Shown: positions 6,251-23,847, counted from the stretch's first letter. The stretch: 64,000 bases of DNA from Gammaproteobacteria bacterium (GCA_965238175.1 CBDEGZ010000003.1:608001-672000), one strand, 5' to 3'. The notes: a model not told the origin generated them from the letters alone. A program made the numbers and translations.

Positions 6251-6484
6251 ATGCAAGTTTCAAAATGGGGCAATAGTCTCGCGATCCGTATACCCATCGC
6301 CATTATTGAAGCCTTGAAGCTCCGCGAAGGCGACGATATTGAAGTTCTAATTGCGGATGACCGTGTATTCAAGGTGAAGAAAAAACTTGGTAAAGAGGAT
6401 TTGCTCGCGCAGTTACGTAAGTTTCGGGGGAAACTACCAGACGATTTTAAATTCGACCGTGATGAGGAAAATGGCCGAAACTAA
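6251..6484 (+). CDS. AbrB/MazE-family antitoxin (VapB)
   Basis: MQVSKWGNSLAIRIP...LKLREGDDIE; GGAGG RBS. Confidence 0.92.
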   Translation: MQVSKWGNSLAIRIPIAIIEALKLREGDDIEVLIADDRVFKVKKKLGKEDLLAQLRKFRGKLPDDFKFDRDEENGRN

Positions 6485-6881
6485 AGTATTTATCGATACA
6501 AACGTCTTACTCTATCTTCTCTCAAGCGATGAAGAAAAGGCGGGCCGCGCTGAAGCTATTCTACAGTCCGGTAGTTCTATCAGTGTCCAGGTCTTAAATG
6601 AAATAGTCAATGTCGCTCGTCGCAAGCTTGCCCTGCCTTGGGAAGAGATTGCCGAATTTTCTGATCTCATTCGGGCATTCTGTCCTGTTAAACCCTTAAC
6701 TACTGAGACACATGATAAAGGCCGTTATATCGCTGAGCGATACAAGCTTAATGTGTATGACGCAATGATTGTGGCTGCAGCATTGTTGGCAGACTGTAAA
6801 ATCCTGTATTCGGAAGATATGCAGGATAGCATATTAATAGATGATCAACTTCGGATCACCAACCCTTTTAACCTCAAATAA
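6471..6881 (+). CDS. PIN-domain toxin (VapC)
   Basis: FIDTNVLLY, SVQVLNE, YDAMIVAAAL, LYSEDMQ; ATG at 6471 overlaps the antitoxin. Confidence 0.92.
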   Translation: MAETKVFIDTNVLLYLLSSDEEKAGRAEAILQSGSSISVQVLNEIVNVARRKLALPWEEIAEFSDLIRAFCPVKPLTTETHDKGRYIAERYKLNVYDAMIVAAALLADCKILYSEDMQDSILIDDQLRITNPFNLK

Positions 6882-7576: not shown

Positions 7577-10500
7577 TTGAACATGCACCGCATATTTGCC
7601 ACCCCCAGAACGCTACTTCCAAGCATCCTTCTCCTGAGTTTTTTGAGCCTAACCAGTCAATCTACTATCGGTGCAAGTGTTAACTTTGAAGAAATGGTAA
7701 CAGGAGGTTCAAGCGGCTCCAGTAGAGTACAAACGTCCAGTAATGTTACTGCAGCGAGCGATCATTTGTATCTGGCCGCCATTACCAGCAAATCTTACAA
7801 AACAGTGACGTCAGTCACTGGTCTCGGACTTACCTGGTCGGAAGTACTCACACAATGTGGAGGCCGAAACCAGACAGGCGTGACGGTCTGGAAAGCACAA
7901 GGTACTCCAAGTGGCCCTGGCCCCGTGAGTGCAACATTATCGGGCTCGGCCAACAATGCGGCTATCGCCGTATCGCGCTATTCCGGTGTGGCGTTGAGCA
8001 ACCCGATAGGGAATACGGTTTCTGACAATAGCAACGGTATTGGAGGTGGTTGCTCTGGCGGTGTAGATACAGACGCCTATAGTTTTAGCTTAACCACGAC
8101 CGCAAGTGACTCGTTGGTTTATGGTGCGATCAGTATGCGCAATAAAACCCATACACCCGGCGCAGGTTATACAGAGCGCGTCGCCTTTGTTCAAGGCAGT
8201 GGTGGCGGTACAGCATCTGTTGCCGTGATGGAACGAGCGACTAATAGCCCATCATCGACAATCATTGATGGCGGATTCAGCAGTTCAGTGGACTATGGAG
8301 TCATCGGGATAGAGATAAAACCCGTAGGGAACAACAATACCGCACCAGACGTCACCAACCCAGGCAACCAGACAGGAACAGTCAATACAGCCATCACATC
8401 GTTACAAATTAATGCTACTGATAGCGACAACGGTGACATCCTGACGTTTAGTGACAATGGCAACAGCCTGCCTGCGGGCTTAAGTATTAGCAGTAGCGGT
8501 TTGATTACGGGAACACCGATCACGGTGAGTAATTACAACGTCACTATCAACATCAGTGATAATACCGATATCACCCCGACCAGTTTTGATTGGAACATCA
8601 GTCCGGCAACGAATAATAATAGTGCCCCCACGATAACTACGATTGGTGCACAGACTGCCACCAGTGGAACGAGCAAAACCATTAACGTAACGGCCACTGA
8701 CAGTGATAGCAGCGACACCTTAAGTTTTAGCTTAGGAAGCGGCCCAAGTTTTGTTAGCTTAACAGACAACGGTAATCGAACAGCTACCATCACGGTTGGT
8801 GCAGGTAGTACCGTAGGTAACCATAATATTACGGTCAATGTCAGTGATGGTAATAACGGCAATGACAGTGGAAGCTTTGTCTTAACTGTTTCCTCCACGG
8901 GCAGCAGTAGTTGTGGACCCCTAACCCAGGAAGCTGAAGCAGGAATCTTAAGTGGTGATTTTGAGATAAGTGACAACAGCTCTGCCAGTGGCGGACAGAT
9001 TGTGGAAGTCCCCGCCGACCCTTCCTACTATACTCAACAAGGAGTTACAGAACACTATGTAGAGCATTGCTTCAATGTCACCCAAGTAGGTACCTATCGA
9101 ATAGTCGGTACCGCGAAAGGATCCGGCAGCAATGACAACTCCTTCCGCGTTACCATGAATGACCAGCCGAGCGATGGCCATGCTTGGTCCTATACTCACA
9201 GTAATGGGTTTGTAACTGAAGAGATTAGTGGTGGTAATGGCAGTGGAGATGTAGAAGAGTTTTTCCTGAACACAGGGGACAACACCGTGCGATTTTATCT
9301 GCGTGAAGACGGCGCCCAGCTTGATAAAATCAGCCTCGTTTTACAGGGCAGTGGTAACACCGTGCCAAACGTGACCAACCCAGGTAACCAGACAGGTACC
9401 GTCAATACGGCCATCACACCATTACAGATTAATGCCACAGATGATGACGGTGACATTCTGACATTTAGCGAAAGTGGTAACAGCTTACCAGCGGGTCTAA
9501 GTATCAGTAGTAGCGGTCTGGTTATGGGAACACCGACAACAGCAAGTAACTACAACGTCACCATCAACGTCAGTGATAATGACAACACTACCCCAACCAG
9601 TTTTGATTGGAATATCAATCCTGCTGGTGGTGGCGGTAGCTGTGGCCCTCTGACCCAGGAAGCTGAAACCGGAACGTTAAGTGGTGCTTTTGGCCTAGTG
9701 GCAGACAGTGCCGCCAGTGGCGGACAATATGTCGAAGTGCCAGCTGACACTACCTCCACGGGTTCAGCACCATCGAGTAATTATGCCGAATATTGCTTTA
9801 ATGTCACCCAAGCCGGCACCTACCGAATTGAAGGCACCGCCCGCGCATCAAACAGCTCATACAACTCCTTCCGCGTGACCGTGAACGACAACCCAAGCAG
9901 TGGTCATGCCTGGGCCTTCAGCCACGGTAATGGCTTTGTGACCGAAGAAATAGCCGGTGGCAATGGCAGTGGCAGCCCCGAAGACTTCAGCCTAAACGCC
10001 GGCGACAACACCGTGCGCTTCTACCTACGCGAAGACGGTGCTCAACTGGACAAAGTCCGCCTTGTCCTACAAGGTGGCGGTAACACCGCCCCCAGTGTCA
10101 CCATCAGCAACCCCAACAACGGCACCAACGTCACCCAAGGCAGCAATATAACCTTAACCGCCACCGCCAATGACACCGAAGACGGCAGCCTAACCAACAC
10201 TATCAGCTGGAGCTCAAACCACGATGGCAGCTTAGGCACCGGTGGCAGCGTGAGCCTAAGTAATTTAAGTGCAAACACCCATACGATAACCGCCAGCGTC
10301 ACCGACAGTGGCGGATTGTCTGGAAACAGCACTATCAGTCTTACCGTCACCGTCACGACTACCGGTGGCAGTACCGTCACCGACATCATCGTCGACAACA
10401 GCGATAACAACACCCACACAACCGGCACCTGGTTAAACTCAAGCACAACACCAACACACGATGGAAGCAACTCTGTTTATAGCAATACCAATGGCAGCTT

Positions 10501-12376
10501 TCGGTGGACACCGAACATTATCACCGCCGGAGAATACACCGTCTATGCCTGGTGGACCTATTACGCAAGCCGACCTTCGGCCGCGTCCTACACCCTTCAA
10601 CACAATGGTGGCAGCAGTGTGGTGACCAAAGCCCAGAACGATCAATCACTGGGCGGACAATGGGTTGAATTAGGCACCTACACCTTCGCCGCCGGTAGTG
10701 CAGGCTATGTTGAACTCACCAGTAACACCAGCGGTAACTTCAGTGCCGATGCAATTAAATTAGTCCATGGTGGTGGGAGTAGGCCGAGCAGTAGTAATGC
10801 TGATCCAGTAATCAGCACAATTGGTACCCAAACGGCGACGGTGGGCAGTAGCAAGACCATCAATGTGAGTGCCAGCGACAGTGATAGTGGTGACACCTTG
10901 AGCTTTATTCTGGAGAGTGCGCCGAGTTTTGTGAGCTTGACCGACAATGGCAATCGCACCGCCACTCTCGCTGTGAGTAGCAACAGTACATCAGGTCATC
11001 ACAACATTGTTGTGAGTGTACGTGATGCTAACGGTAGCAGTGACAGCGAGAGCGTTGTGTTGACAGTGAGTGGTCAAATTGCCGCAAACCTCGTTGACTG
11101 GCAAGTAGTTGGAACGAATGATTTTGATGGCGATGGCAAGTTCGACACCTTGTTACACAACTTCAGTACGGGTGAAGTTTGGATGTATCTCATGGACGCG
11201 GCTCAAGTGAGCACGAGTGCCCATGTTACCAATGTTGGCGCGAATTGGCGCGTTGCAGGAACGGGTGATTTTAATGGCGACGGCAAAGCGGATGTTCTGT
11301 GGCGAGAAACAATCACACATAAGACCCGAGTCTACCTGATGAATGGAACAACGGTGAGTGCAGATCAAGCGGTCAGTAATGCTACGGAACTTCCAGAGTG
11401 GCAGATAAGAGGCGTCGATGATTTTGACGGTGATGGTAAAGCAGATATTTTGTGGCGCAATATCAATACAGAACGAAGCTGGATGTACTTAATGAATGGT
11501 TCCACCATCGTTAGTCAGGGGATTGTCGCTGATCACGGACCTAATTGGAGAATTAAAGGGACAGGTGATTTTAATGGCGATGGCAAGGCCGATATCTTAT
11601 TTAGAAATACGGTATCAGACAAGAATATTATCTTCCTGATGAACGGCAACAGCATCTTGCAGCAAAGCGCAGAGCTCACGTTTGCCGCCTTGGTTTGGGA
11701 AGTTCGCGGTGTTGCTGACTTCAATGGCGATGGTAAAGCAGACATCCTGTGGCGACACAAGACGACCGGTGAAAATCGGATCTATATGATGAATTCCTTC
11801 ACGGTAACGTCCAACCAGAGCGTGAATACAGAAGCGGATCTCGCCTGGAAGATTGTGGGTGTCGGTGATTTTAATGGCGATGGTAAATCGGATATCTATT
11901 GGCGTTATGACACGGATGGTCAGCACCGTTTGTACTTAATGAATGGCGCTAGCATCAATGCGAGTGTGCTTATCGATCAAACCCTTCCTCAGCAGACACT
12001 TACGGTTAGTGTTTCCACGCTCTCCTTTACATTAGACGAAGGGACTACTGGAACGCAGAGCATCTTTTTTACTAGCACGAGCAATGACGGTGTGAGTAGT
12101 CTACCTGACTTAATATCGCTAGAGGGATGGTTATCGTCAACGAATGGAAGATTTTCAAATGGCGCCAAGATCACGGTTGATACGACGGGATTAGCACTAG
12201 GCACCTACACCAGTGATGTCATCGCAATATTAGCGAATCATACAACGGCCACGATACGCGTAACGTTAGAGGTCACGCAAGCATCAGGCCTAGGCCCAGG
12301 ACCCGTCCTCGTCTTTGTCGAAAACGACTGCCCTACTGAGCCGGATGTTGCGTTCCCAACGCCCCTGACACCCTAA
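7577..12376 (+). CDS. Large secreted multidomain adhesin-like protein (putative Ig x2, cadherin-like x2, CBM6/35-like x2, Ig, golvesin-like, FG-GAP x6, BACON-like)
   Basis: Signal peptide; repeated modules PDVTNPGNQTGTVNTAIT..LPAGLSISSSG, SCGPLTQEAE, PSFVSLTDNGNRTAT; IIVDNSD..GGQWVELGTY..ADAIK; six W...GDFNGDGKADILWR repeats. Confidence 0.8.
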   Translation: MNMHRIFATPRTLLPSILLLSFLSLTSQSTIGASVNFEEMVTGGSSGSSRVQTSSNVTAASDHLYLAAITSKSYKTVTSVTGLGLTWSEVLTQCGGRNQTGVTVWKAQGTPSGPGPVSATLSGSANNAAIAVSRYSGVALSNPIGNTVSDNSNGIGGGCSGGVDTDAYSFSLTTTASDSLVYGAISMRNKTHTPGAGYTERVAFVQGSGGGTASVAVMERATNSPSSTIIDGGFSSSVDYGVIGIEIKPVGNNNTAPDVTNPGNQTGTVNTAITSLQINATDSDNGDILTFSDNGNSLPAGLSISSSGLITGTPITVSNYNVTINISDNTDITPTSFDWNISPATNNNSAPTITTIGAQTATSGTSKTINVTATDSDSSDTLSFSLGSGPSFVSLTDNGNRTATITVGAGSTVGNHNITVNVSDGNNGNDSGSFVLTVSSTGSSSCGPLTQEAEAGILSGDFEISDNSSASGGQIVEVPADPSYYTQQGVTEHYVEHCFNVTQVGTYRIVGTAKGSGSNDNSFRVTMNDQPSDGHAWSYTHSNGFVTEEISGGNGSGDVEEFFLNTGDNTVRFYLREDGAQLDKISLVLQGSGNTVPNVTNPGNQTGTVNTAITPLQINATDDDGDILTFSESGNSLPAGLSISSSGLVMGTPTTASNYNVTINVSDNDNTTPTSFDWNINPAGGGGSCGPLTQEAETGTLSGAFGLVADSAASGGQYVEVPADTTSTGSAPSSNYAEYCFNVTQAGTYRIEGTARASNSSYNSFRVTVNDNPSSGHAWAFSHGNGFVTEEIAGGNGSGSPEDFSLNAGDNTVRFYLREDGAQLDKVRLVLQGGGNTAPSVTISNPNNGTNVTQGSNITLTATANDTEDGSLTNTISWSSNHDGSLGTGGSVSLSNLSANTHTITASVTDSGGLSGNSTISLTVTVTTTGGSTVTDIIVDNSDNNTHTTGTWLNSSTTPTHDGSNSVYSNTNGSFRWTPNIITAGEYTVYAWWTYYASRPSAASYTLQHNGGSSVVTKAQNDQSLGGQWVELGTYTFAAGSAGYVELTSNTSGNFSADAIKLVHGGGSRPSSSNADPVISTIGTQTATVGSSKTINVSASDSDSGDTLSFILESAPSFVSLTDNGNRTATLAVSSNSTSGHHNIVVSVRDANGSSDSESVVLTVSGQIAANLVDWQVVGTNDFDGDGKFDTLLHNFSTGEVWMYLMDAAQVSTSAHVTNVGANWRVAGTGDFNGDGKADVLWRETITHKTRVYLMNGTTVSADQAVSNATELPEWQIRGVDDFDGDGKADILWRNINTERSWMYLMNGSTIVSQGIVADHGPNWRIKGTGDFNGDGKADILFRNTVSDKNIIFLMNGNSILQQSAELTFAALVWEVRGVADFNGDGKADILWRHKTTGENRIYMMNSFTVTSNQSVNTEADLAWKIVGVGDFNGDGKSDIYWRYDTDGQHRLYLMNGASINASVLIDQTLPQQTLTVSVSTLSFTLDEGTTGTQSIFFTSTSNDGVSSLPDLISLEGWLSSTNGRFSNGAKITVDTTGLALGTYTSDVIAILANHTTATIRVTLEVTQASGLGPGPVLVFVENDCPTEPDVAFPTPLTP

Positions 12377-12476
12377 AGGATACACACACAACAACCGATA
12401 AAGACAGCCGCCTCAACACATTGTGCTGAGGAAGCCTAAAGAGACACGGCACAGACGTGCCACACACGACAGGAAA

Positions 12477-15400
12477 ATGCAGATGACACGCCAAACACAG
12501 ACAGGCCTTGGAACTCACCCACGCAGAGTTAACGCTTTTGTTGCCAGCTTAATTTTCGCCTTAATGTCATTAACCACATCGGTGATGCAAGCGGCAGTGC
12601 CGGGCCTCACCCCGGGAGAGCTGAGTGTTGGTCAGTCGGGTGCGGCAGAATACAATGTGCCGATTGCAGTGCCACCGGGCACGGCTGGCATGGCACCGAT
12701 CTTATCGTTGAACTACAGCAGCAACAGCGGCAATGGGCCGCTAGGGGTCGGGTGGTCATTAAGTGGTCTATCGGCGATTACCCGCTGTCCACAGACCCTG
12801 GCACAAGATGGACAAATACGCGCAGTGAAGTTTGACACTCAGGATAAGTTTTGTCTGGATGGCCAGCGTCTAGTCGTCTCAAACGGCGGTGCCTATGGTG
12901 CCAATGGTACACAATATCGCACTGAGATGGATAACTTTAGTTTGATTACTTCGCACGGCAGTGGCTCAGGCTCACCTGTCAGTGGACCAAACTACTTCAC
13001 CGTCAAAACCAAAGCCGGTCAAACGATGTTTTACGGCACGACAACGGACTCAAACATTGACAGCCTCAACGGCGGACACGTGCGCACCTGGGCCTTAAAC
13101 CAGCTCCACGACACGGTCGGTAACTACATCAATTTCACTTATGAAGAAGATACCGACAAGCAAGATTACCGGATAGCGCGGATAGATTACACCGGCAACG
13201 TTAATGGCAGGGGCCCCTACAGCTCGGTACGGTTTGCGTACATGCCACGGCCAAGACTGGCCAAAGGTTACATTGCAGGCCACCCCTTTGCACAACGTAA
13301 GCTGATGACAAACATCAAGACCTATGCAGGTGAGACGCAGGTGAAAGACTATCGGCTGCATTATGAGATGACCGGTGTGGTGGGGCAACCGCGCATCGAA
13401 GAAATCAAAGAGTGTGATGGTGGTGGTCAGTGTTTTAATCCGTTGACGTTTGACTGGTCGCCGGAGTTATTTGGTTTTGTTGGCGCACAAAGCCTTGCAG
13501 ATGTGCCCCTTAAAGAAAGTCATGGTTTCCAGTGGGTGGATCATAATGGCGATGGTAAAACCGACTTTTGTTATATCGCCAAGTCCAATGAATTGCGCTG
13601 TCACCTCTCGACCTCCACTTTGGATGGCGGCAACGAGTTCAATCGTACACCAGTCAGATCAGCATCCACTATTGATAAGGGCTATGAAGAGGGAAGAGAA
13701 TGGGTGGATGTAAATGGTGATGGACGGGTGGATTTTTGTCGTTTAGTGGTGGATGGGTCTAGCAACAAATATATGGCATGCAACGCATCCACTGGCAATG
13801 GTTTTAATAATACGTTCTACAGTAGTATCTTAGCTGACGGTGGAGGTCAGTCAGAAGGTCGCCGATGGGTGGATTTTAATGGTGATGGACGAGCGGATTT
13901 TTGTCGGGTGACAGGATCTAGCAGTGCCGCCTGTACGCTCTCAACCGGTACTGGCTTTGGTCAGACTATTATTGGCACAGGTTTAACTTATGGAACCGGT
14001 GCGAATGGAAAAAATATCCGTGACTGGGAAGACGTCAATGGCGATGGTCTGGTGGATTTTTGTCGGACGCTGTCTGATAAAAGCAAAACGTGTAATTTTT
14101 CCACGGGTAGCGGGTTTGATCTTACTCCACATCAAACGGCAGCCAATACGGTGGGAACGAGCCTTAGCTTTGTGGGAGGAACGAACCCCAACCAAAATCG
14201 CTGGATCGACTTCAATGGTGACGGCAATAAAGATCTCTGTGTTGTACAAAGGGAAGGAGGTGAGAGGTACTCTGAGGAACGTCGAATAGTTCCGAATTTA
14301 GGCTATCCTATTCATCATAATATCATTGGTGAAGTGACTTATACAACAAAATGCACTTTGTTCACTGGGGTAGGTTTCGCACCTATTGCTATCGAATCAG
14401 AGCCGCTTGTCATCCCTGAACAATATTGTCAGGGTCGGTTCTGCACTCCTGAAGGCCTTGGAGTCGATTTTAAATGGAAAGATGTCAACAATGATGGGCT
14501 TGGCGATGTGTGCTTTAGGGTTGACAAAGGACGTTCTGGGTGTTTTTTTTCTGAAGGGCATCGCTTCCACTCTCTTATGAGTGTAACAGGTATAGTGTTT
14601 GGGGACAGCCGATTAATTGATGCGAACTTCGCCGATGTCAACGGCGATGCCATCGCTGATGCGTGCTATGTCCGATTTAGACGTAATCCGGACAATGACG
14701 ATCAAATCAACTGCAACATCGGCAACACCCGCCCCCAGATGCGCATTATCAAAGTCACCAACAGCCTTGGTAGCCCCACCGAGATTGAATACAAACCGAT
14801 GACCGACAGCAGCGTCTACAGTAAATCTGCGGATGTGGTTCCGAAAACAACAGGCTACCCTTACCTTGACGTCCAAGCCCCGATGTACGTAGTCTCCAAG
14901 GTTAAAAATGACAATGGCCTCGGCCTCGGCATCACCAACGACGTCGACTACACCTATGCAGGCGCCAAAGTCCACCTAAAAGGCCGTGGTTTTGCTGGTT
15001 TTCGTTGGATGTTTGCCTACAACAGAGCCCAAGGCACCTATGCGGCGACCGAGTTCCATCAAGACTTCCCACTCGCCGGCATGGTCGCCTACACACGTAG
15101 CAACCTGATTGCAGACAATAGCCTGATTAGTCAAACCAACAACACCTATAACGTTGTGGCAAGAACCGACGGCAGCTATTTTCCCTATCTTCAAACCAGT
15201 AACCAAGTCACATACGAACTCGGCGGAGCCATGGTCAAACAAACCGTTACAGACTACGTCTACGATGATTATGGTAACCCGATCTCGATTAAAGTGGCCA
15301 CCGCAGGCCTCGACCAAAATACCTTCCGCACAGAAACCACCAACACCTACGACGCGTCCAGTACCGCCATCAGCAAATGGTACCTAGGCCGCTTAACCAC

Positions 15401-18400
15401 CACCGCCGTCACGCAAACCGCCAACGGCAAGACCGCAACCCGTAAATCAGCGTTTGAATACGACATCAATGGTCACGGCATGCTGATGAAAGAAATCATC
15501 GAGCCGAATAACCCCGCACTTCGATTAGAAACCGCCTATCAATACGACGCCTACGGTAACAAAACCCGCGTCACCGCCTTGGGCGGCAGCGGATCTACCG
15601 CCATCACCGCCCGCAGCACACGAACAGAATATAGCGGCGGCGGTCACAACACCGGGCAATTCCCGATCAAAATCACCAATGCGATGGGCGAATCTGAAAC
15701 CCATACCTACGATGCGCGCTTTGGCGTCATGACCAAACTCACCGGCCCCAATGGTCTGGAGACCACCTGGCAATACGATAGCTTTGGACGCAAGATAAAA
15801 GAGACACGGGCAGATAGCACGACAACCACCTTTACTCGTAACTGGTGTGCTAAATACTGTAAGACCTCCCTGACCACCCAAAGCACTGGCAGTGCGCCTG
15901 CTCTGGAAGCCTTTGACCGACTCGGCCGAATTCAATATGTCAATACCTATGGTCTTGGAAATGATCTGTCTGGCAGCAATGTCTACACAGATCTAAATAT
16001 CATTAACCCCCGCATTATCAGTGTAGCAACCCAATACAATATTCGCGGTGAAATCAAACGAACCTCACAACCCTTCTATCTTCAGAGCCCCATTCACTGG
16101 ACCAACTTCACCTACGACGCCCTCGGCCGGCCGCTAACCGAAACCGACGCCAACGGCACCACCGGTTATGAATATAAGGGACTAACATCAACCCTCACCA
16201 ACCGCCTCAACCAAAAAACCACCCGGCGAGTTAATGCGCGTGACGAATTGATCCAAACCACCGACAACCTAGGCTTCAACACCTATTACCAATATGATGC
16301 ACAGGGCAACCAAACCCAAGTCACTGACCACCTCGGCAACATCACCACCATTGACTACGACGCCCGTGGTCGCAAAATCGCCATGAACGACCCCGACATG
16401 GGCGACTGGGAATACAGCTACAACGCCCTCGGAGAGCTGATAAGCCAAACCGACGCCAAAGGCCAAATCACCCGCATGGAATACGATATTCTAGGGCGCA
16501 TGATCACACGCACAGACGCGGAATGTAACAGCTTCTGGGTCTATGGCTCACACAGCAACACCGGCGCAAGTGATAAGGCCATCGGCAAACTCATCTACAG
16601 CCAAAAAGGCCAGCAAGAAAAAATCTTCACTCGCTACGACAGCCTAGGCCGTCCGAATGAAATTGAAACAAGACTACAGTTTGAAGCCACCAACAAAACC
16701 TACCTCACCCAAACAAATTACGACACGCTCGGACGAGTACAAGACATCACCTATCCGGCCAGCAACGACTACCCAACAGGCCTCGTAGTCAGAAACCACT
16801 ACGACGCCAACGGCCATATGCACAAAGTCACCGGCCCCAACAACATCACCTACTGGCAAGCCACCAAACAAAATGCGCGAGGCCAGATAACCGAGTTCCG
16901 TATGGGCAATGGCGCCACCGAAACCCAACGGTCTTATAATGCAATAAACGGCCTGGTAAGCAACATCAACACCCGTAACGATAATGGAACTGACAACATT
17001 CAGAAACTTGGCTTTACCTTTGACGTCGCCGGCAACCTCAAAACCCGCCGAGGCTACGACCAAGGCAATAACACCAACCTCGAAGAAAACTTCCATTATG
17101 ACGGCATCAATCGCCTCATCGTGTCACAGCTTGGCGATGGGTCACATCGAAAGCAATACGACTACGACGCGCTCGGCAACCTCACCTTCAAAACCGGGGT
17201 TGGCACCTACGACTACACCAACGGCCGTCCACATGCGGTGAGCAACACCTCGATTGGGAGTAAACAATACCAATACGACGACAATGGCAACATGATGAGC
17301 GGTGATGGTCGAACCATCACCTGGTCACCGTACAACAAACCGATCAAAATTGAGAAAGACGGTGTACAAACCGCCACCCAATTTGACTACGGCGCGAACC
17401 GCAACCGCATTCGGCAGGTAAATGATCAAAAAATCATTTATTACGTCAACGGCCTGTTTGAGCAGGAATACGATGGCACCACCACCACCGACGTGCACTA
17501 CATCAAAGCCGGTGGCAGCACCATTGCGATTGTTAAATCCAAAGGCACCAACGACCCACTAGAAACCCGCTACCTGCACAAAGACCACTTAGGCGGCATT
17601 GAGTCGATTACAAATGAACAAGGTAACCTAGTCCAACAGTTTAGCTATGACCCGCATGGCAAACGCCGGGCGGTTAACTGGACCGATGATGACAATGTCA
17701 GCAACCCGGCTATTTATCAATTTGACACCCAACGTGGCTTTACCGGGCATGAACACCTGGACGAGGTGGGGCTAATTCACATGAACGGCCGAGTCTATGA
17801 CCCGACGCTTGGACGGTTTATCAGTGCAGATCCGTTTGTGCAGTTCCCGGACAATGGCCAGTCATTGAACCGCTATTCGTATGTGTTGAATAATCCGTTG
17901 AGTTATAGTGACCCGAGTGGTTTCTTGTCTTTGGGCTTTTTAAAAAAAGCTTTTAAGGTTGTGGCGAGTTATTTTATCGCGGTAATCCCCGGGGTTAATG
18001 TATTCGTAGCTGGTTTTCTGATTGGTTTTTTAAATGGAGGCACTTTAAAATCAGGATTTATTGGTGCAGTGACGATGGGCGCATTCCAGAAACTGGGAGG
18101 TGCCGGTGCAATTGCAGGGAAAATTGGAGGTTTTACAGGTGATGTTGTCGAGGTCGTGGCTCATGGTGTTGTTGGAGGTGTCTCTGCCATCGCCCGTGGT
18201 GGTAGGTTTATCCAGGGGTTCTTGCCTGCCGGGTTGAGTAGTGCAACGAGCTTGTCTGGTTTCTTAAGGAACTTAGATGATGTGACGCAAGGTTTTGCGC
18301 AGGCTGTTATTGGTGGAACCGCTTCTGTGTTGGGTGGCGGTAAGTTCGCAAATGGGGCGATTACGGGGGCGTTTGTTTATGCGGCGGGGAGGGTTGGGCA

Positions 18401-21400
18401 GGCGAGTGCTGACGGTAATATCTGTAGTAGACGCCCAATCAACATCGCTACCGGTGAGAAGTACCTGACCATGCTGGATTATAAAGCCGCTGGCGCAAGC
18501 CAGCTTAAATTTGAGCGTTACTACAGTAGTCATGCAAAAGAAAAAACATCGTTAGGTTACGGTTGGCGTTCCAATTTTGATAAGAAACTCCGTTTTGAAG
18601 GGGTTGCAATGGGGATCCCATGGAAGGTTATCTATACCAAGACTAATCGTGAAGAAGTGGTTTTCTCACAAAATGATGAGGGCAACTGGATCACCTCAAG
18701 CGATACGTTAGAAAGCCTTCAGAAAACCGAAGCTGGTTGGCAGCTAACCGATGCCAGTGGCACGGTTGAAACCTTTAATACGGACGGTCAGTTTGAGACT
18801 GTTGAAAAACGCGGTGGTTATCAACAAGCGCTGTCATACAATGATAACGGTCAGCTTGTACAAGTGACCGACAGCTTCAATGTTAGCTTGAACTTTACAT
18901 ATAACCGTAAAGGCTTGCTGGAGAGCATGAGCGATCCAGAAGGCAATGTAACGCACTATCGCTACAATCATACCAAACAAGTCCTGGCACAAGTTCTCTA
19001 TCCGGATGAAACAGAAACCTTAGCGGATAACCCTTACAAACGATACTTCTATCGGGATAAACGCTTCCCTACCGCCATTACCGGGATTGAAAACGAGCTG
19101 GGTCAACGCATCCACTCAATGGCCTATGATGGACAAGGCCGCGCAATCTTAAGTGAACTCGGTGACTCCGGTGAACGTGTTGATATTGTCTTCCACAAAG
19201 GTGTCAATGCAGCTAACAAGAGCAGCACTGTACGCAACTCCCTAGGCCGTGAAACTAAATACTTCTTCGATGCAGATAATCGGCCACTCTCCGTTGAAGG
19301 TCACGCCACCAAAACCTGTATCGCCTCCAATCAAGGTTATACCTACGATGAGAATGGCAACATTGAGACCAAGACCGATTGGAACGGCGTAGTGACGCGA
19401 TACCAATATAACGATCGCAATCTTGAAATCCTGCGCATCGAAGCCGAAGGCACCGACAGCGAACGTGTTGTTACGACTTCATGGCATCCACACTACCGGA
19501 TCCCAACGCAAGTTGTAGCACCAGGTAACACCACTGAGTTTGATTATGATCAACGTGGATTACTCACCAAACGGACCGAGCGCGATACCTTATCCGCACG
19601 TACTGCCTGGCAAGAACTATTGTCAGTCTATCCAGAACGCGTCACCACCTATGCCTACAATGCACAAGGGCTGGTTGAAAAAATCGACGGACCGCTGACT
19701 GGCGAAGACGACGTACTCACCTTTGCTTATGACGCCATGGGTAATCGCACACAAGTGAACAACTCACTAGGTCATCAAAGTGAAACCCGTGCGTTTGATC
19801 AAAATGGACGACCATTACTCGTGGTCGATGCCAATGGCGTTGAAACCCATCTTGAATACAATGCGCGCGGCTGGCTTGCACGTAAAACCATCAAAGGGAA
19901 TGACGGTGAAGCCACCACACAGTATGAATACGCACACAGTGGCACCTATGAAGGCCAAGGGCTGATATCAAAAGTCACCTTACCAAACCAAAAAACAGTG
20001 AACTACGATTATGATAGCGCCTATAAATTGATCGGCCTGCATAATAGCCAAGGCGAGCGAATTGAATACACCCTTGACCTTGAAGGCAACCGCATTGCCG
20101 AAACCACCTTTAATGCCAGTAACGAACTGGTACGCACACAACGACGCGTGTTTGACGAACTCAGCCGACTGCTATCCAGCATCGGTGCAGATCAACAAAC
20201 CACTCGTTACCATTACGACAAAAACGGCAACCTAACCGGCAGAGTGGATCCACTCAATAATGAAACCCACTACGCCTTTGATGCACTCAATCGACTGATT
20301 GCCACCACCGATGCCAATGATGGCGTTGTGGCAACGGCGTATAATGGCCAGGGGCAAGTCACCTCTGTGACAGATCAACGCGGTCTGACCACCGAATACC
20401 ACTACAATGGCTTTGGTGAGAAGGTGGCTCAGATTAGCCCGGACACCGGCAAAACCGTGTTTGACTACAACAAAGCAGGACAATTGATCAAACAGATAGA
20501 CGCACGGGAAATCGAGACACAATACCACTATGACGCGATAGGACGAGTCACACAGATCCACTACCCCGCCGCCAATGACGATGACATTTACTATGCCTAT
20601 GATCAACAACGTACGGGTACCGATCATGCGATTGGACAGTTGACTGAGGTCACTGATCCAGCGGGCACCACCGAGTACGGTTATAACCAACATGGGCAAG
20701 TAAACCGTCAGGACTACACCCTCGGCGGTGTTGCATACCATACACAAAACCACTACAACGCCGCTGGCGAATTAACCGCCATGACCTACCCAAGCGGACG
20801 CGTGGTCAACTACCAACATGATAACCTGGGCCGCATTCAGGGAGTCACCACCCAAGCCTCAGCGACAAACCGTGCACAAACGGTCGTTAATCACCTTGAC
20901 TACCACGCCTTTGGCCCTGTCTCGCAAATGGACTATGGTAATGGCGCACAGATCAATATTGATCGCGATAAAGACTACCGCGTCACCCATATCCGGGTCA
21001 CCGACAGCAATAACGATGTCGCCTACTATGACGCCGGCTATCACTATGATGATGCCAGCAATATTAAACAGATCGACGATCAGATAGAAACCACCGACAG
21101 TCAAACCTTTGATTATGATGCACTCTATCGTTTAACCCGTGCAGAAGGACAATACGGTCAAATCGACTACGATTATGACGGTGTCGGCAATCGCCTGGAA
21201 CGACGGTTGAATGATAAATTGAGTGATACAGACACGCTAGACAGCCTGATAGAGACCTATGATTACGCCCATGACAGTAATCGTTTGATCTCCGTGGCCA
21301 AGCAAAAAGGCCAACATAGCACACAGCGCAGCCTGGATTATGATCCGGTAGGGAATATCATCCATGACAGCCGCTCAAGTGAAAATAATCTGGCCTTAAA

Positions 21401-22418
21401 CTACGGCGCCAACAACCGCCTGCAACAGGTGGATAAACAGACGGAAGGTGAGACAACCTCGGCCTATGTGTATAACGCCAAAAACCAACGTGTGATCAAA
21501 ACGGTCACACAAGCGGACGGTTCGCAAACCACGACGCACTTCCATTACAACGCGCTCGATCAATTGATTGCAGAAACCAGCAACAATGGCGCGGTGTTTA
21601 AGGAATACCTGTATGCCGGTGGTACGCGTGTAGCGATGGTGGATTATGCACAGGATAATGCGGGGCAGCTGGTGTTTATCCATAATGATCACTTAGGCAC
21701 ACCGAAGTTGATGACCGATGGTGACATGCGCGTGGTCTGGCAGGCACAAAGCTTACCGTTTGGTGAAACCCGTGCGTCGGTGGCGGATGTGAAACAATCA
21801 TTGCGCTTCCCGGGGCAGTACAAGGATGAGGAAACGGGGTATCATTATAATTATCATCGGGATTATGATCCGACGTTGGGAAGGTATATTCAGTCGGATC
21901 CGATTGGGTTGCTGGGTGGGGTTAATACGTTTGGGTATGTGGGGGGGAATCCGGTGACATCTTTTGATCCTAAAGGCCTAGTTGAATGGACTGGCCGAGT
22001 TGAATATATAAATGCTGGTCAAGTTGCTGGTACTATTAGAGCACGTTTTTTCTTAGAGTCTGAGGCTGTGAAAGGAGTGAAATGGAGAGTAAGGGTTAAT
22101 GCGGCCGGATCAGGTAGTGTAATTGGCAAAGGCCCTTATGCGGTTTCAGCATCAAAAATCACATTTAATGATGGGTTAACGTCTACTGGACCAACTGTTT
22201 TTGAAGGTAATTTTGTTATGGCAAATGCTGGTTTTTCTACACCTCTTGGTGGTGTTACTTATGGTGGGGTGATACTGGGAAATGCTGCTTCAAAAGGCTT
22301 CTCATTTTCAATAGGTATAGAGGTTCCCGGTGCATTAGATATGCATGGGGAGTCATCATTAGTCTCTGCAGAACAAATATTTGTTGAAGATGAAAATCAA
22401 CAACTGATGTGTCCTTAG
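12477..22418 (+). CDS. Secreted SpvB/FG-GAP/YD-RHS toxin with a second DUF6531-RHS module and C-terminal tip
   Basis: AGGA RBS before ATG 12477 (open frame from 12423); signal peptide; SpvB motif GAAEYNVPIAVPPG..P.LSLNYSS..GNG.LGVGW; DxNGDG repeats; YD repeats; core 1 GRFISADP..NRYSYVLNNPLSYSDPSG; DUF6531-like PINIATGEK..ERYYSS..LGYGW; core 2 GRYIQSDPIGL.GG.N.FGYVGGNP...DPKG. Confidence 0.9.
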   Translation: MQMTRQTQTGLGTHPRRVNAFVASLIFALMSLTTSVMQAAVPGLTPGELSVGQSGAAEYNVPIAVPPGTAGMAPILSLNYSSNSGNGPLGVGWSLSGLSAITRCPQTLAQDGQIRAVKFDTQDKFCLDGQRLVVSNGGAYGANGTQYRTEMDNFSLITSHGSGSGSPVSGPNYFTVKTKAGQTMFYGTTTDSNIDSLNGGHVRTWALNQLHDTVGNYINFTYEEDTDKQDYRIARIDYTGNVNGRGPYSSVRFAYMPRPRLAKGYIAGHPFAQRKLMTNIKTYAGETQVKDYRLHYEMTGVVGQPRIEEIKECDGGGQCFNPLTFDWSPELFGFVGAQSLADVPLKESHGFQWVDHNGDGKTDFCYIAKSNELRCHLSTSTLDGGNEFNRTPVRSASTIDKGYEEGREWVDVNGDGRVDFCRLVVDGSSNKYMACNASTGNGFNNTFYSSILADGGGQSEGRRWVDFNGDGRADFCRVTGSSSAACTLSTGTGFGQTIIGTGLTYGTGANGKNIRDWEDVNGDGLVDFCRTLSDKSKTCNFSTGSGFDLTPHQTAANTVGTSLSFVGGTNPNQNRWIDFNGDGNKDLCVVQREGGERYSEERRIVPNLGYPIHHNIIGEVTYTTKCTLFTGVGFAPIAIESEPLVIPEQYCQGRFCTPEGLGVDFKWKDVNNDGLGDVCFRVDKGRSGCFFSEGHRFHSLMSVTGIVFGDSRLIDANFADVNGDAIADACYVRFRRNPDNDDQINCNIGNTRPQMRIIKVTNSLGSPTEIEYKPMTDSSVYSKSADVVPKTTGYPYLDVQAPMYVVSKVKNDNGLGLGITNDVDYTYAGAKVHLKGRGFAGFRWMFAYNRAQGTYAATEFHQDFPLAGMVAYTRSNLIADNSLISQTNNTYNVVARTDGSYFPYLQTSNQVTYELGGAMVKQTVTDYVYDDYGNPISIKVATAGLDQNTFRTETTNTYDASSTAISKWYLGRLTTTAVTQTANGKTATRKSAFEYDINGHGMLMKEIIEPNNPALRLETAYQYDAYGNKTRVTALGGSGSTAITARSTRTEYSGGGHNTGQFPIKITNAMGESETHTYDARFGVMTKLTGPNGLETTWQYDSFGRKIKETRADSTTTTFTRNWCAKYCKTSLTTQSTGSAPALEAFDRLGRIQYVNTYGLGNDLSGSNVYTDLNIINPRIISVATQYNIRGEIKRTSQPFYLQSPIHWTNFTYDALGRPLTETDANGTTGYEYKGLTSTLTNRLNQKTTRRVNARDELIQTTDNLGFNTYYQYDAQGNQTQVTDHLGNITTIDYDARGRKIAMNDPDMGDWEYSYNALGELISQTDAKGQITRMEYDILGRMITRTDAECNSFWVYGSHSNTGASDKAIGKLIYSQKGQQEKIFTRYDSLGRPNEIETRLQFEATNKTYLTQTNYDTLGRVQDITYPASNDYPTGLVVRNHYDANGHMHKVTGPNNITYWQATKQNARGQITEFRMGNGATETQRSYNAINGLVSNINTRNDNGTDNIQKLGFTFDVAGNLKTRRGYDQGNNTNLEENFHYDGINRLIVSQLGDGSHRKQYDYDALGNLTFKTGVGTYDYTNGRPHAVSNTSIGSKQYQYDDNGNMMSGDGRTITWSPYNKPIKIEKDGVQTATQFDYGANRNRIRQVNDQKIIYYVNGLFEQEYDGTTTTDVHYIKAGGSTIAIVKSKGTNDPLETRYLHKDHLGGIESITNEQGNLVQQFSYDPHGKRRAVNWTDDDNVSNPAIYQFDTQRGFTGHEHLDEVGLIHMNGRVYDPTLGRFISADPFVQFPDNGQSLNRYSYVLNNPLSYSDPSGFLSLGFLKKAFKVVASYFIAVIPGVNVFVAGFLIGFLNGGTLKSGFIGAVTMGAFQKLGGAGAIAGKIGGFTGDVVEVVAHGVVGGVSAIARGGRFIQGFLPAGLSSATSLSGFLRNLDDVTQGFAQAVIGGTASVLGGGKFANGAITGAFVYAAGRVGQASADGNICSRRPINIATGEKYLTMLDYKAAGASQLKFERYYSSHAKEKTSLGYGWRSNFDKKLRFEGVAMGIPWKVIYTKTNREEVVFSQNDEGNWITSSDTLESLQKTEAGWQLTDASGTVETFNTDGQFETVEKRGGYQQALSYNDNGQLVQVTDSFNVSLNFTYNRKGLLESMSDPEGNVTHYRYNHTKQVLAQVLYPDETETLADNPYKRYFYRDKRFPTAITGIENELGQRIHSMAYDGQGRAILSELGDSGERVDIVFHKGVNAANKSSTVRNSLGRETKYFFDADNRPLSVEGHATKTCIASNQGYTYDENGNIETKTDWNGVVTRYQYNDRNLEILRIEAEGTDSERVVTTSWHPHYRIPTQVVAPGNTTEFDYDQRGLLTKRTERDTLSARTAWQELLSVYPERVTTYAYNAQGLVEKIDGPLTGEDDVLTFAYDAMGNRTQVNNSLGHQSETRAFDQNGRPLLVVDANGVETHLEYNARGWLARKTIKGNDGEATTQYEYAHSGTYEGQGLISKVTLPNQKTVNYDYDSAYKLIGLHNSQGERIEYTLDLEGNRIAETTFNASNELVRTQRRVFDELSRLLSSIGADQQTTRYHYDKNGNLTGRVDPLNNETHYAFDALNRLIATTDANDGVVATAYNGQGQVTSVTDQRGLTTEYHYNGFGEKVAQISPDTGKTVFDYNKAGQLIKQIDAREIETQYHYDAIGRVTQIHYPAANDDDIYYAYDQQRTGTDHAIGQLTEVTDPAGTTEYGYNQHGQVNRQDYTLGGVAYHTQNHYNAAGELTAMTYPSGRVVNYQHDNLGRIQGVTTQASATNRAQTVVNHLDYHAFGPVSQMDYGNGAQINIDRDKDYRVTHIRVTDSNNDVAYYDAGYHYDDASNIKQIDDQIETTDSQTFDYDALYRLTRAEGQYGQIDYDYDGVGNRLERRLNDKLSDTDTLDSLIETYDYAHDSNRLISVAKQKGQHSTQRSLDYDPVGNIIHDSRSSENNLALNYGANNRLQQVDKQTEGETTSAYVYNAKNQRVIKTVTQADGSQTTTHFHYNALDQLIAETSNNGAVFKEYLYAGGTRVAMVDYAQDNAGQLVFIHNDHLGTPKLMTDGDMRVVWQAQSLPFGETRASVADVKQSLRFPGQYKDEETGYHYNYHRDYDPTLGRYIQSDPIGLLGGVNTFGYVGGNPVTSFDPKGLVEWTGRVEYINAGQVAGTIRARFFLESEAVKGVKWRVRVNAAGSGSVIGKGPYAVSASKITFNDGLTSTGPTVFEGNFVMANAGFSTPLGGVTYGGVILGNAASKGFSFSIGIEVPGALDMHGESSLVSAEQIFVEDENQQLMCP

Positions 22419-22436: not shown

Positions 22437-22748
22437 GTGAGAAGCATAATGACAGTTCATGATTATTTTGCACTTTTAATATTGGTTCAATTAGTGCTTT
22501 TTGCACTCGCTTTTGGGCAGCTGGAACGGAATCATCCTATAGAGCACAATGAATTGGGTGGCAGTAAAGCATTGCTTGGTTTCTTAAGCACAATGCGTTT
22601 CATTACTTTTTTTATGGCACTTAGATTTTTAAGGATGTCAGAAAAACCAGTACTTACTAATAGAGAATTGATTATATATTTTGGTTTTTTTATTTCTTCA
22701 TGGATAACTTTTGTAGGCTTGGTGTGGCTTTTGGTTGCGAGAATATAA
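22437..22748 (+). CDS. Probable immunity protein (small, 2-3 TM)
   Basis: Immediately after the RHS tip, low GC, hydrophobic segments; function inferred from position. Confidence 0.6.
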   Translation: MRSIMTVHDYFALLILVQLVLFALAFGQLERNHPIEHNELGGSKALLGFLSTMRFITFFMALRFLRMSEKPVLTNRELIIYFGFFISSWITFVGLVWLLVARI

Positions 22749-22801: not shown

Positions 22802-23050
22802 AGTTACATAGAGTTCTTCTATGAGGCGCGTCAAGATCAGGTTTCTGGCTACTATGCGGGCAATCTGGCTATCCAGAAGTTCCGCATGTCAAATATCAAA
22901 ACCTATAATGGTCAGATCTTGGTGCATGATTACCAGCTTGCGTATCTTCCTGAGCAAAGCGTCAATAGTAATTCTTACATAAAGACGCTGACACAATGTG
23001 ATGCCGCAGGTTTGTGTTTTAACCCAACAACCTTGGGCTGGAGTGCAGAG
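22802..23050 (+). pseudogene. Orphan fragment of a paralogous SpvB/TcB-like RHS N-terminal region
   Basis: SYIEFFYEARQDQVSGYYAG..QKFRMSNIKTYNGQILVHDYQLAY...QCDAAGLCFNPTTLGWS aligns with SSVRFAYMPRPRLAKGYIAG..QRKLMTNIKTYAGETQVKDYRLHY...ECDGGGQCFNPLTFDWS of the large RHS gene. Confidence 0.75.
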
Positions 23051-23058
23051 CAAAAAGA

Positions 23059-23847
23059 AACCAAGGGGTCAGCCATCTTGATATTTCACTTTGAAGCAAG
23101 TAATCTACCCAAATGGCGCGCCTACCAAGAATAGTTATCCCAGACCAAGCACTGCATATCATGCACAGAGGCAATAATCGTCAAGTCATCTTTGAAACAG
23201 AAGAAGATTTTATAAGGCTTAAGGATGATATTAACCACACCTTATTAAAAGCAGACTGTCAGCTTCATGCCTATGTGATAATGAATAACCACCTACACTT
23301 ACTACTTACACCCAAAGATAAAGAGCAGCTCAAAGTCTTTATGCAATCGTTGAGTAATCGCTATGTGCGTTACTTCAATGCTGTACGAAAACGAACCGGC
23401 ACTCTTTGGGAAGGACGCTATAAATCTTGCTTAATCGACAGTGACAACTACCTGTTCACGCTCTATAAATACATCGAAATGAACCCGGTGAAAGCCAATA
23501 TTGTTGATAACTTAGAAGCCTATCGATGGTCGAGTTATCACCACAATGCGTTAGGAAAGAAAGACAAGCTCATCGCTACCCATCCACTCTATAAGAAATT
23601 AGGAAAGACATTTGATCAACAAACAGCTGCCTACAAGGCTTTGTTTGAAGGGTTAGACCTATCGCAAGATGTTGACATTACCCAAGCGACTCAAAAGGGT
23701 GAGGTTTTTGGTAAGGCGGGTTTTCATACACAAATGGCTGCAAAATTATCGAGACCGACAAAATTAACCTCGCACGGTGGAGATAGGAAAAGTGAGGCTT
23801 ATCGAGATAATCATGCTGGCTGACCCCTTGATTCCGACCCCTTGATT
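23059..23847 (+). mobile_element. RAYT element bounded by inverted CAAGGGGTCAGCC repeats
   Basis: Left aaccaaggggtcagccatcttgat (23059); right atcatgctggctgaccccttgatt (23810-23833) plus a partial tandem copy gaccccttgatt (to 23847). Confidence 0.8.
23113..23823 (+). CDS. REP-associated tyrosine (Y1/HUH) transposase
   Basis: MARLPR, HIMHRGNNRQ, YVIMNNHLHLL (HUH), RTGTLWEGRYKS, YIEMNPVKA, YRWSSY, C-terminal HGGDRKS. Confidence 0.92.
   Translation: MARLPRIVIPDQALHIMHRGNNRQVIFETEEDFIRLKDDINHTLLKADCQLHAYVIMNNHLHLLLTPKDKEQLKVFMQSLSNRYVRYFNAVRKRTGTLWEGRYKSCLIDSDNYLFTLYKYIEMNPVKANIVDNLEAYRWSSYHHNALGKKDKLIATHPLYKKLGKTFDQQTAAYKALFEGLDLSQDVDITQATQKGEVFGKAGFHTQMAAKLSRPTKLTSHGGDRKSEAYRDNHAG

Follow-up and report, generated by a model that had tools for sequence, protein, structure and literature searches.

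Cocoons of RHS proteins and Tc toxins are understood as one shell that encloses one small, unfolded cargo. Here we describe a gammaproteobacterial gene in which a second complete RHS cocoon almost certainly occupies the toxin slot of the first; it lies on a stretch of 64,000 nucleotides (nt) of assembly GCA_965238175.1 (CBDEGZ010000003.1:608001-672000), hereafter called the window, and all positions are counted from its first letter. TcdB/TcaC-type polymorphic toxins were presented by Zhang et al. 2012 (PMC3482391). Among TcC cargoes, 97.9% are 201-400 amino acids (aa) long and 99.8% are smaller than 40 kDa (Song et al., PMC7861908), and the cavity of plug-type Rhs proteins, ~32,000 cubic angstroms, accommodates toxins of ~15-16 kDa (PMC10684867). 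For WapA-CT1 of Streptococcus suis, Edman sequencing revealed three cuts and four fragments, the first cut being located at P-I-N-L-N-T-G, where DUF6531 starts (PMC12704120).

The layout presented below, a real and conserved two-cocoon architecture seated in a toxin slot, is a description of which we are almost certain; our account of its function is held with moderate confidence. With an entire further cocoon in its cargo slot, a TcBC-like shell departs from the size rule and raises the question of how the chain leaves a closed shell, which should be of interest to structural biologists of Rhs and Tc proteins.

Domain order and the toxin slot

The gene consists of a single stop-free frame of 9996 nt, encoding 3331 aa when counted from GTG 12423 (Table 1). 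The ATG codons at 12477 and 12483 are likelier starts, and the database copy of the protein, P0003, begins at M48. An initial annotation had read in this open reading frame (ORF) a signal peptide, SpvB, FG-GAP, two YD shells with an RHS core each, and a DUF6531-like start to the second shell; the stop-free frame and the domain scans bear out its domains, and a leader is predicted. In a whole-genome scan with hidden Markov models, the two cores were recovered as separate matches to TIGR03696 (Rhs_assc_core, cut-off 32.5 bits), scoring 75.2 and 93.1 bits; the domain scan of the protein placed DUF6531 (PF20148, aa 2004-2060, E 8.2e-17) between them. Motif search placed DPSG at aa 1830 (nt 17910), GGKFANG at aa 1972 (nt 18336) and DPKG at aa 3182 (nt 21966), exactly where they had been annotated. 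RHS_repeat matched 15 stretches of the whole protein (E 4.8e-97) and FG-GAP_3 four to five (Pfam scan), while TcdB_toxin_midN scored 24.4 bits, just below its cut-off of 24.8. The domain scan yielded no match to PAAR on the protein and no Pfam match to a TPS domain or FHA repeats. The putative Sec leader was called solely from hydropathy and, by eye, from the pattern RR...VMQA/A.

The piece between core 1 and DUF6531, which we call the linker, is 171 aa long, Gly-rich and hydrophobic, in line with the ~170 aa initially described. Its supposed end, GAITGAF, did not hold: this motif ends at aa 1984, 20 residues short of DUF6531.

The position of the second cocoon can be judged from a paralogue. 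The same genome contains a second, single-shell SpvB-RHS gene (L001:6539-13000, where L001 is G000:C3:908000-927000), whose product of 2153 aa is 89% identical to the window's protein across 2010 aa. At the DNA level the two genes are 95.6-98.5% identical in aligned blocks, and this identity extends as far as window nt 18406 (aa ~1994), directly past ...GAFVYAAGRVGQ. Beyond the boundary, the paralogue possesses an unrelated, ordinary tail of ~180 aa, followed by a small lipoprotein-like ORF (12997-13440). As the paralogue carries an ordinary toxin there instead, shell 2 occupies the variable toxin slot, which is what the initial annotation had proposed. Farther along L001, an orphan RHS cassette (14053-16686, 877 aa) repeats the protein from aa 1276 onward; its diverged linker ends in the same GGKFANGAITGAF, where its conserved part ends, and is followed by a different tail of 153 aa. 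The locus is terminated by an IS200-like element ORF (17248-17958). Judged by its sequence, L001 has the classic main-gene-plus-orphan layout of polymorphic toxins, and by this layout the boundary between conserved and variable parts lies after the linker, not at DPxG. The variable part of the window's gene is thus made up of DUF6531, RHS shell, core and tip as one unit. Differences between the paralogues are almost all confined to the FG-GAP propeller (aa ~350-770) and the C-terminal slot. The propeller looks like a second variable module, perhaps a receptor-facing one.

The possibility of misassembly at the junction, raised by the initial annotation, was examined in public reads. In run X1, a read-derived contig of 5280 nt spans positions 17808-20000 with 0 differences, passing through core 1 and the linker and into the first part of shell 2. 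In run X2, the assembly graph branches at 18044 and at 18406, the loose end at 18406 being the continuation of the paralogue. The fusion is not a misassembly. These are the two public runs in which the stretch is present (no RNA run contained it), and both come from one sample, possibly the source of the assembly itself, so that they represent raw-data support, not independent replication.

The sizes of the parts are equally informative. In 93 single-shell relatives (see below), the chain after the core measures 200-508 aa (median 327), and 293-374 aa in 90 of the 93, compared to 1498 aa after core 1 of the window's protein. Against this range and the 40-kDa limit of TcC cargoes, the initial suspicion that ~1500 aa are too many to be caged is borne out: 1498 aa cannot be enclosed, whereas the 171-aa linker alone would fit. 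Among proteins with the double layout, the linker is 171-220 aa long (27 measured) and the tip after core 2 99-167 aa (26 measured). From these size ranges, the double proteins resemble single-shell ones with a cocoon of ~1180 aa inserted between the pre-toxin piece and the toxin. The size of the window's tip, 146 aa, agrees with the ~15-16-kDa cargo of plug-type Rhs proteins.

Relatives, predicted cleavage sites and neighbouring genes

The double design is not unique to this genome but turns up across a small family of environmental bacteria. When relatives were searched with the junction region, 2890 proteins passed E <= 0.001; among the 119 other proteins listed, 25 contained two cores with DUF6531 between them (hereafter doubles), one was a truncated double and 93 had one core. 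Two further complete doubles (P0244 and P0311) and fragments P0243, P0246 and P0264 came from a scan of 1.84 billion representatives, and three "short" relatives of shell 2 (P0124-P0126) turned out to be truncated doubles as well. The layout is thus common to 27 other complete proteins and seven fragments, the independent occurrences that the initial annotation had called for; one double comes from a metagenome-assembled genome of Cellvibrio. Among the best 150 representatives, the match lay more than 1600 residues into the protein in 10. A census of GTDB species genomes found 77 loci, two of which extend beyond query residue 100 (L004 of Cellvibrio sp. 79, residues 21-180, and L015, residues 13-146); this is an undercount, as the pattern peptides were mostly specific to the window's protein.

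Identity among doubles is 40-60% in shell 2 and 30-35% in shell 1. Shell 2 is covered over 100% of its length by Rhs proteins of 1300-1700 aa. Its closest relatives (in the range of 649-2067 aa) are truncated doubles or fragments, stand-alone Rhs proteins being at most 40% identical, and shell 2 is therefore a dedicated lineage, moved among shell-1 backbones or replaced by simple toxins. In a tree of shell 1 (last 450 aa, 120 rows, FastTree), the double state requires at least 5-6 changes, and the window's shell 1 falls within a starred clade of single-shell proteins. The doubles show that whole cocoons, and not toxin tips alone, are exchanged as cassettes.

By comparison with the TseI consensus and the N-terminal Rhs motif, three candidate self-cleavage sites can be recognized, two in the cores and one at the start of shell 2: i) G1833/F1834 with D1803 and D1830, ii) R2004/P2005 with E2012, in the context RR/PINIATGE, and iii) G3185/L3186 with D3159 and D3182. 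The roles of these residues are transferred from mutagenesis of TseI, where they belong to D1407, D1429 and E428/E429 (PMC7170923), and of Tse5 (PMC10684867, PMC11461821), and the N-terminal Rhs motif is x/PVxxxxGE (PMC7170923, PMC11461821). In all 26 aligned doubles, core 1 retains ...ADP... and DPSG, and core 2 retains SDPIGL, the second Asp and the Gly; loss of a catalytic Asp, which the initial annotation had considered damaging to its idea, was therefore found in neither core. Of 28 doubles, 25 have P-I-x-[ILF]-x-T-G-E, and the motif with the ~30 residues behind it (NPINIATGEKYLTM.DY.A.GAS.LKFERYYSS) is almost invariant across them. A chance match as the explanation of the DUF6531 start was considered and rejected on the grounds of this near invariance of PINIATGE and the residues that follow. 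Furthermore, a Cys is located 2-10 residues ahead of the predicted N-terminal cut in 27 of 27 doubles measured, in the window four residues before the linker end (18420-18434, aa 2000-2004). It may provide a disulfide tether in the periplasm.

The linker itself belongs to a wider family. In the window it contains 20.5% Gly, with a transmembrane-like stretch at aa 1843-1872 and GGKFANGAITGAF at aa 1972-1984; apart from the leader (aa 36-59), it is the only place in the protein with strongly hydrophobic 19-aa windows (hydropathy). It matches DUF637 (PF04830) at 28.5-28.6 bits (cut-off 26.6) over profile positions 101-166 of 168. Basic residues outnumber acidic ones (K+R over D+E) in 26 of 27 double linkers, with one tie (P0010). 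For an alignment, core-cut-to-GGKFANGAITGAF segments were extracted by a regular expression from 34 of the 77 census loci, from very diverse bacteria (153-198 aa); the other 43 had no core-to-motif segment by that pattern. DUF637 was matched in 20 and Gly-zipper families in three of the 37 aligned members. AlphaFold 2 (AF2) predicted seven helices from this 37-sequence alignment, with a mean predicted local distance difference test (pLDDT) of 74.7 and a predicted template modelling score of 0.42. Foldseek gave no match for this model in the PDB at E <= 0.001 (the best, Tim23, at E 1.1, headed a weak list of mostly helical membrane proteins that was not used as evidence), and no PDB sequence match to the linker was found.

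The DUF637 domain of CdiA is a small helical domain ahead of the pre-toxin motif (PMC4725963, PMC3482391), and a similar region is named PT-TG in the S. suis paper (PMC12704120). In RHS proteins of Bacteroidota, Verrucomicrobiota, Campylobacterota, Alpha- and Gammaproteobacteria and others (L005-L080, 77 loci), GGKFANGAITGAF ends a post-core module of 150-200 aa. By sequence comparison, it seems to be a pre-toxin boundary of very wide distribution, much as VENN is in CdiA. The window's DUF637-like piece lies between two predicted self-cleavage sites; it might be isolated as a discrete product of 171 aa, offering a handle on its function.

As for the tip, it gave no Pfam match and nothing meaningful among PDB sequences (best E 0.0068 over 26 residues); ESM Atlas was uninformative (recognition 1406, unnamed clusters), and no homologue appeared among 1509 candidates of 257-2000 aa, which is weak evidence. 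A single-sequence AF2 model was unusable (pLDDT 34.4). Downstream of the gene, the IS200-like element (23058-23830, 773 nt) abuts what is left of a third SpvB-type gene, and its sequence agrees 100% with that of the copy at the end of the paralogous locus. Upstream, the secreted 1599-aa protein has a ~95% identical copy in front of the paralogue too, and may act together with the RHS proteins as a partner. A PIN-domain ORF (6387-6881, 164 aa, E 1.2e-15) also precedes the locus and is probably part of a toxin-antitoxin system with no relation to the RHS genes. Elsewhere in the genome, two DUF6531-type RHS loci consist of three consecutive same-strand ORFs each: 1065+1160+270 aa in L002 (G000:C3:2001500-2014500) and 687+1565+262 aa in L003 (G000:C3:3175500-3195000). 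In both, the last small ORF bears the RHS core and tip, which could be a natural split, frameshifts or decay.

Table 1 Features of the double RHS gene and its surroundings in the window
Feature	Position (nt)	Strand	Residues or length	Basis or remark
Secreted Ig-like (He_PIG/Big) / Golvesin_C protein, C-terminal FG-GAP propeller with TcdB_midN-like stretch	7577-12376	+	1599 aa	
Whole ORF	12423-22418	+	3331 aa	from GTG 12423
Putative Sec leader	12477-12593	+	M19-A57	basic n-region with RR, hydrophobic core aa 36-59, VMQA/A
SpvB-type N-terminal domain as in TcB	12630-13160	+	aa 70-246	PF03534, E 8.6e-18
FG-GAP beta-propeller, TcdB_toxin_midN-like stretch at end	13530-14732	+	about aa 370-770	domain scans
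RHS/YD-repeat shell 1	14733-17657	+	about aa 771-1745	RHS_repeat, YD_repeat_2x
RHS core 1	17658-17921	+	aa 1746-1833	candidate catalytic D1803/D1830; predicted cut DPSG/F after G1833
Pre-toxin piece (linker), Gly-rich, basic, all-helical, DUF637-like	17922-18434	+	aa 1834-2004, 171 aa	
Last base of DNA identity with single-shell paralogue, start of variable slot	18406	+		
DUF6531 plug opening shell 2	18435-18647	+	aa 2005-2075	motif R2004/P2005-INIATG-E2012
RHS/YD-repeat shell 2	18435-21707	+	aa 2005-3095	
RHS core 2	21708-21977	+	aa 3096-3185	candidate catalytic D3159/D3182; predicted cut DPKG/L after G3185
C-terminal tip and stop, presumed toxin	21978-22418	+	aa 3186-3331, 146 aa	family unassigned
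Candidate immunity ORF, transmembrane-like hydrophobic segment at each end	22437-22748	+	99-103 aa	position; no Pfam match
Remnant of third, diverged SpvB-type gene	22886-23134	+	55 aa	45% identical to aa ~295-348
IS200-like Y1 transposase	23113-23823	+		domain scan

Possible modes of action

The account that we favour, with moderate confidence, is that of a functional composite polymorphic toxin. Its carrier would be a Sec-exported TcB/TcC-like cocoon working without TcA and composed of SpvB, the FG-GAP propeller, shell 1 and an aspartyl-protease core. In relatives of this carrier, a DUF637-like helical piece of ~170-220 aa is followed by a toxin of ~130-170 aa, and in the window's gene as well as in at least 27 other proteins, recombination at the end of the pre-toxin piece would have put a plug-type Rhs cocoon (DUF6531 lid, shell 2 and core 2) before the toxin. 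The precursor would cut itself at the three candidate sites into four pieces that remain non-covalently associated. Shell 1 would enclose the N-terminal part of the 171-aa piece, as it presumably does the linker and toxin in single-shell relatives, and the C-terminal end of the linker would be anchored in the lid of shell 2, like the N-terminal fragments of type VI secretion system (T6SS) Rhs effectors, such as Tse5-NT. In this way, the linker would tether the two cocoons, and it would have to pass out through the shell-1 wall, presumably by way of the propeller. Shell 2, with an expected cavity fitting a cargo of ~15 kDa, would carry the 146-aa toxin, while the small downstream membrane protein would provide immunity. 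Where other Rhs toxins have their trafficking regions, namely PAAR/transmembrane domain (TMD) in T6SS, LXG in the type VII secretion system and LysM in WapA, shell 2 would have shell 1 and the linker.

From the same layout, the initial annotation had proposed that shell 1 might shelter the hydrophobic segment, which would make the protein a self-contained two-stage device that replaces TcA or PAAR/TMD chaperones. Tse5, where the Rhs shell chaperones a membrane-inserting toxin, is compatible with such a device (PMC10684867). In an extended version, the doubles would be self-sufficient two-chamber secreted machines needing neither TcA nor T6SS: shell 1 would store the basic, Gly-zipper-rich helical linker as a translocon peptide and release it through the propeller upon target contact, and the peptide, still held in the lid of shell 2, would open the target membrane and uncork shell 2 for the toxin to follow. 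We consider this version unlikely. Were it true, it would represent the first RHS cocoon that chaperones a membrane-entry device for a second cocoon, and a function could be assigned to the widespread DUF637/GGKFANGAITGAF pre-toxin module.

Several observations weigh against the composite toxin as outlined above, the first of them concerning topology. To our knowledge, the propeller gate is the sole opening of the cocoon. In solved TcB-TcC cocoons, the chain behind the core lies inside a closed shell, so that shell 2 could be outside only if the linker exits shell 1. The gate is reported to open upon TcA binding, with the cargo being released into TcA (PMC12668620). As for the linker, only 14 of 27 double linkers contain a 19-aa window with a Kyte-Doolittle mean >= 1.6, so a true transmembrane segment is not universal among them, and with the window's linker as query, phmmer picks up only 11 of 25. 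The N-terminal motif lacks its Glu in three of 28 doubles (P0035, P0042 and P0311); because of this, the N-terminal cut may not be obligatory, and in Tse5 it is dispensable (PMC10684867). The three cleavages of the window's protein are predicted, and the mechanistic steps built on them rest on homology; likewise, the tip is presumed to be a toxin from its position. Finally, the junction is rare: of 399 other genomes sampled from the same class, two congeners among them, none contained it.

Of the competing explanations, the best one makes shell 2 the sole working cocoon, with shell 1 and the linker serving as a trafficking or adhesion scaffold for an ordinary plug-type Rhs effector; we grant it a tentative place as a possibility of lesser probability. 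Shell 1 would then enclose nothing important, the core-1 cut being kept for shell folding or for freeing shell 2. Such an arrangement, with LysM in WapA and PAAR in T6SS Rhs proteins as its counterparts, would correspond to known Rhs effectors, where the regions upstream of x/PVxxxxGE all serve trafficking (PMC7170923, PMC11461821, PMC12704120, PMC10684867), and to the better conservation of shell 2 noted above. The strongest divergence between the paralogues is also found in the propeller, which might suit a role in receptor binding. Moreover, no T6SS sheath gene (VipB/TssC) was found in the 97.7%-complete genome, although the control matched in E. coli, and shell 2 therefore needs another carrier. 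On the other hand, a mere scaffold is difficult to reconcile with the catalytic motif of core 1, invariant in 26 of 26 doubles, or with a linker length confined to 171-220 aa in 27 of them, which suggests a structural job tied to shell 1; in every one of the 93 single-shell relatives, too, the tail of linker and toxin carried by the shell-1 family is of cargo size.

Serial export in the manner of Tc toxins appears improbable. Here, the propeller of shell 1 would dock on a channel partner, and the linker would lead and pull or position shell 2; the partner could be, for example, the giant FG-GAP/Ig protein encoded upstream or an analogue of TcA. Shell 1 indeed bears the hallmarks of TcB (SpvB, propeller and TcdB_midN-like stretch), and immediately upstream, both loci encode a large secreted protein that has a TcdB_midN-like FG-GAP propeller; in Tc toxins, it is the propeller that controls the passage of cargo into TcA (PMC12668620). 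The upstream 1599-aa protein, however, has no channel-like or TcA domain, and the TcA profiles PF18276 and PF03538 (TcA_TcB_BD and VRP1) found no match in the genome, nor in the controls. We also know of no way for a folded cocoon of 130 kDa to pass a Tc-type channel.

Very improbable is a single elongated barrel, with both RHS blocks lining one cargo chamber as in the AlphaFold model of WapA-CT1, a protein of 3158 aa whose two Rhs domains were modelled as a column with one DUF6531 lid and one core (PMC12704120). A full closing set lies between the blocks in the window's protein, namely core 1 with both Asp residues, the 171-aa helical piece, and a DUF6531 lid with its cleavage motif. In addition, shell 1 stands as a complete unit in the 93 single-shell relatives and the paralogue, and shell 2 alone has the parts and size of a stand-alone Rhs protein.

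An accident, be it misassembly across a repeat or a recent non-functional recombinant heading for decay, is scarcely credible and already contradicted: the junction does fall at the end of a repeat of more than 8 kb common to the second locus, the IS200-like element and gene remnant do mark the locus end, and congeneric genomes do lack the junction, but the read-derived contig bridges it, a swap of the repeat copies could not create the fusion since either copy upstream is an SpvB-RHS-linker gene, the frame is open across its whole length, and order, motifs and linker length are kept in 27 other complete proteins at 30-60% identity.

Comparison with described systems

In the full texts searched for double or tandem RHS proteins, with subscription journals and supplementary files outside reach, only a remark on RhsP dimers and S. 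suis WapA-CT1 came up. The initial annotation had regarded the architecture as undescribed. This stands for the layout, which was found nowhere in that literature, and needs qualification in so far as WapA-CT1 also has two Rhs domains and four fragments (PMC12704120). Apart from its structural interest, the composite toxin would offer a natural system for studying delivery of SpvB-RHS toxins lacking TcA, which, judging from the 2890 proteins retrieved, are very common in marine and soil bacteria.

The first half of the protein resembles TcB-TcC and the TcdB/TcaC-type toxins (PMC3482391), sharing a putative signal peptide, SpvB, integrin-like FG-GAP, RHS repeats, two-Asp core and a polymorphic C-terminal slot, and the tails of its single-shell relatives (200-508 aa) are comparable to TcC cargoes (201-400 aa, PMC7861908). 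Unlike in TcB-TcC, B and C are fused in one chain here, the core is followed by a DUF637-like piece, and the slot holds a whole second Rhs cocoon, so that the chain after core 1 far exceeds the cargo limit of ~40 kDa. The DUF637-like piece, in turn, is similar to the pre-toxin region of CdiA (DUF637/PT637) in being small and helical, in preceding the conserved/variable boundary and in having a fixed end motif at the recombination point, GGKFANGAITGAF as against VENN (PMC3482391, PMC4725963); in contrast to CdiA, it follows an RHS core and not FHA repeats, and neither a TPS domain nor CdiB accompanies it.

The second half corresponds to the T6SS Rhs effectors TseI, RhsA, Rhs1, RhsP and Tse5, with a DUF6531 lid, x/P[VI]xxxxGE and a YD shell (PMC7170923, PMC10684867, PMC11461821). 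Its core likewise has two Asp residues and a ...G/L cut site, the tip is of ~15 kDa, and three associated fragments would be expected, as in the available descriptions of these effectors. It differs from them in that PAAR, prePAAR/TMD and a VgrG-binding region are lacking, as is a T6SS sheath gene in the genome; instead, a complete cocoon and a pre-toxin piece lie upstream of the N-terminal cut, and export presumably proceeds via Sec.

The closest parallel is WapA-CT1, which is also a Sec-exported protein of more than 3100 aa and whose two Rhs domains both terminate at a DPxG-type site (TDPSG in WapA-CT1; PMC12704120). That protein, however, is Gram-positive and wall-anchored (LysM, DNRLRE), without SpvB or propeller, and in the available part of its description DUF6531 is placed before block 1 only, the blocks adjoin, no hydrophobic linker or second lid is mentioned, and the model is a single-chamber column (PMC12704120). 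In the window's protein, DUF6531 lies between the blocks, after a non-RHS piece of 171 aa, the two layouts being set apart by description only. The parts of the double RHS protein, i.e. a TcBC-like toxin, a two-cut plug-type Rhs and the DUF637 module, are all known, and it is their combination that is new.

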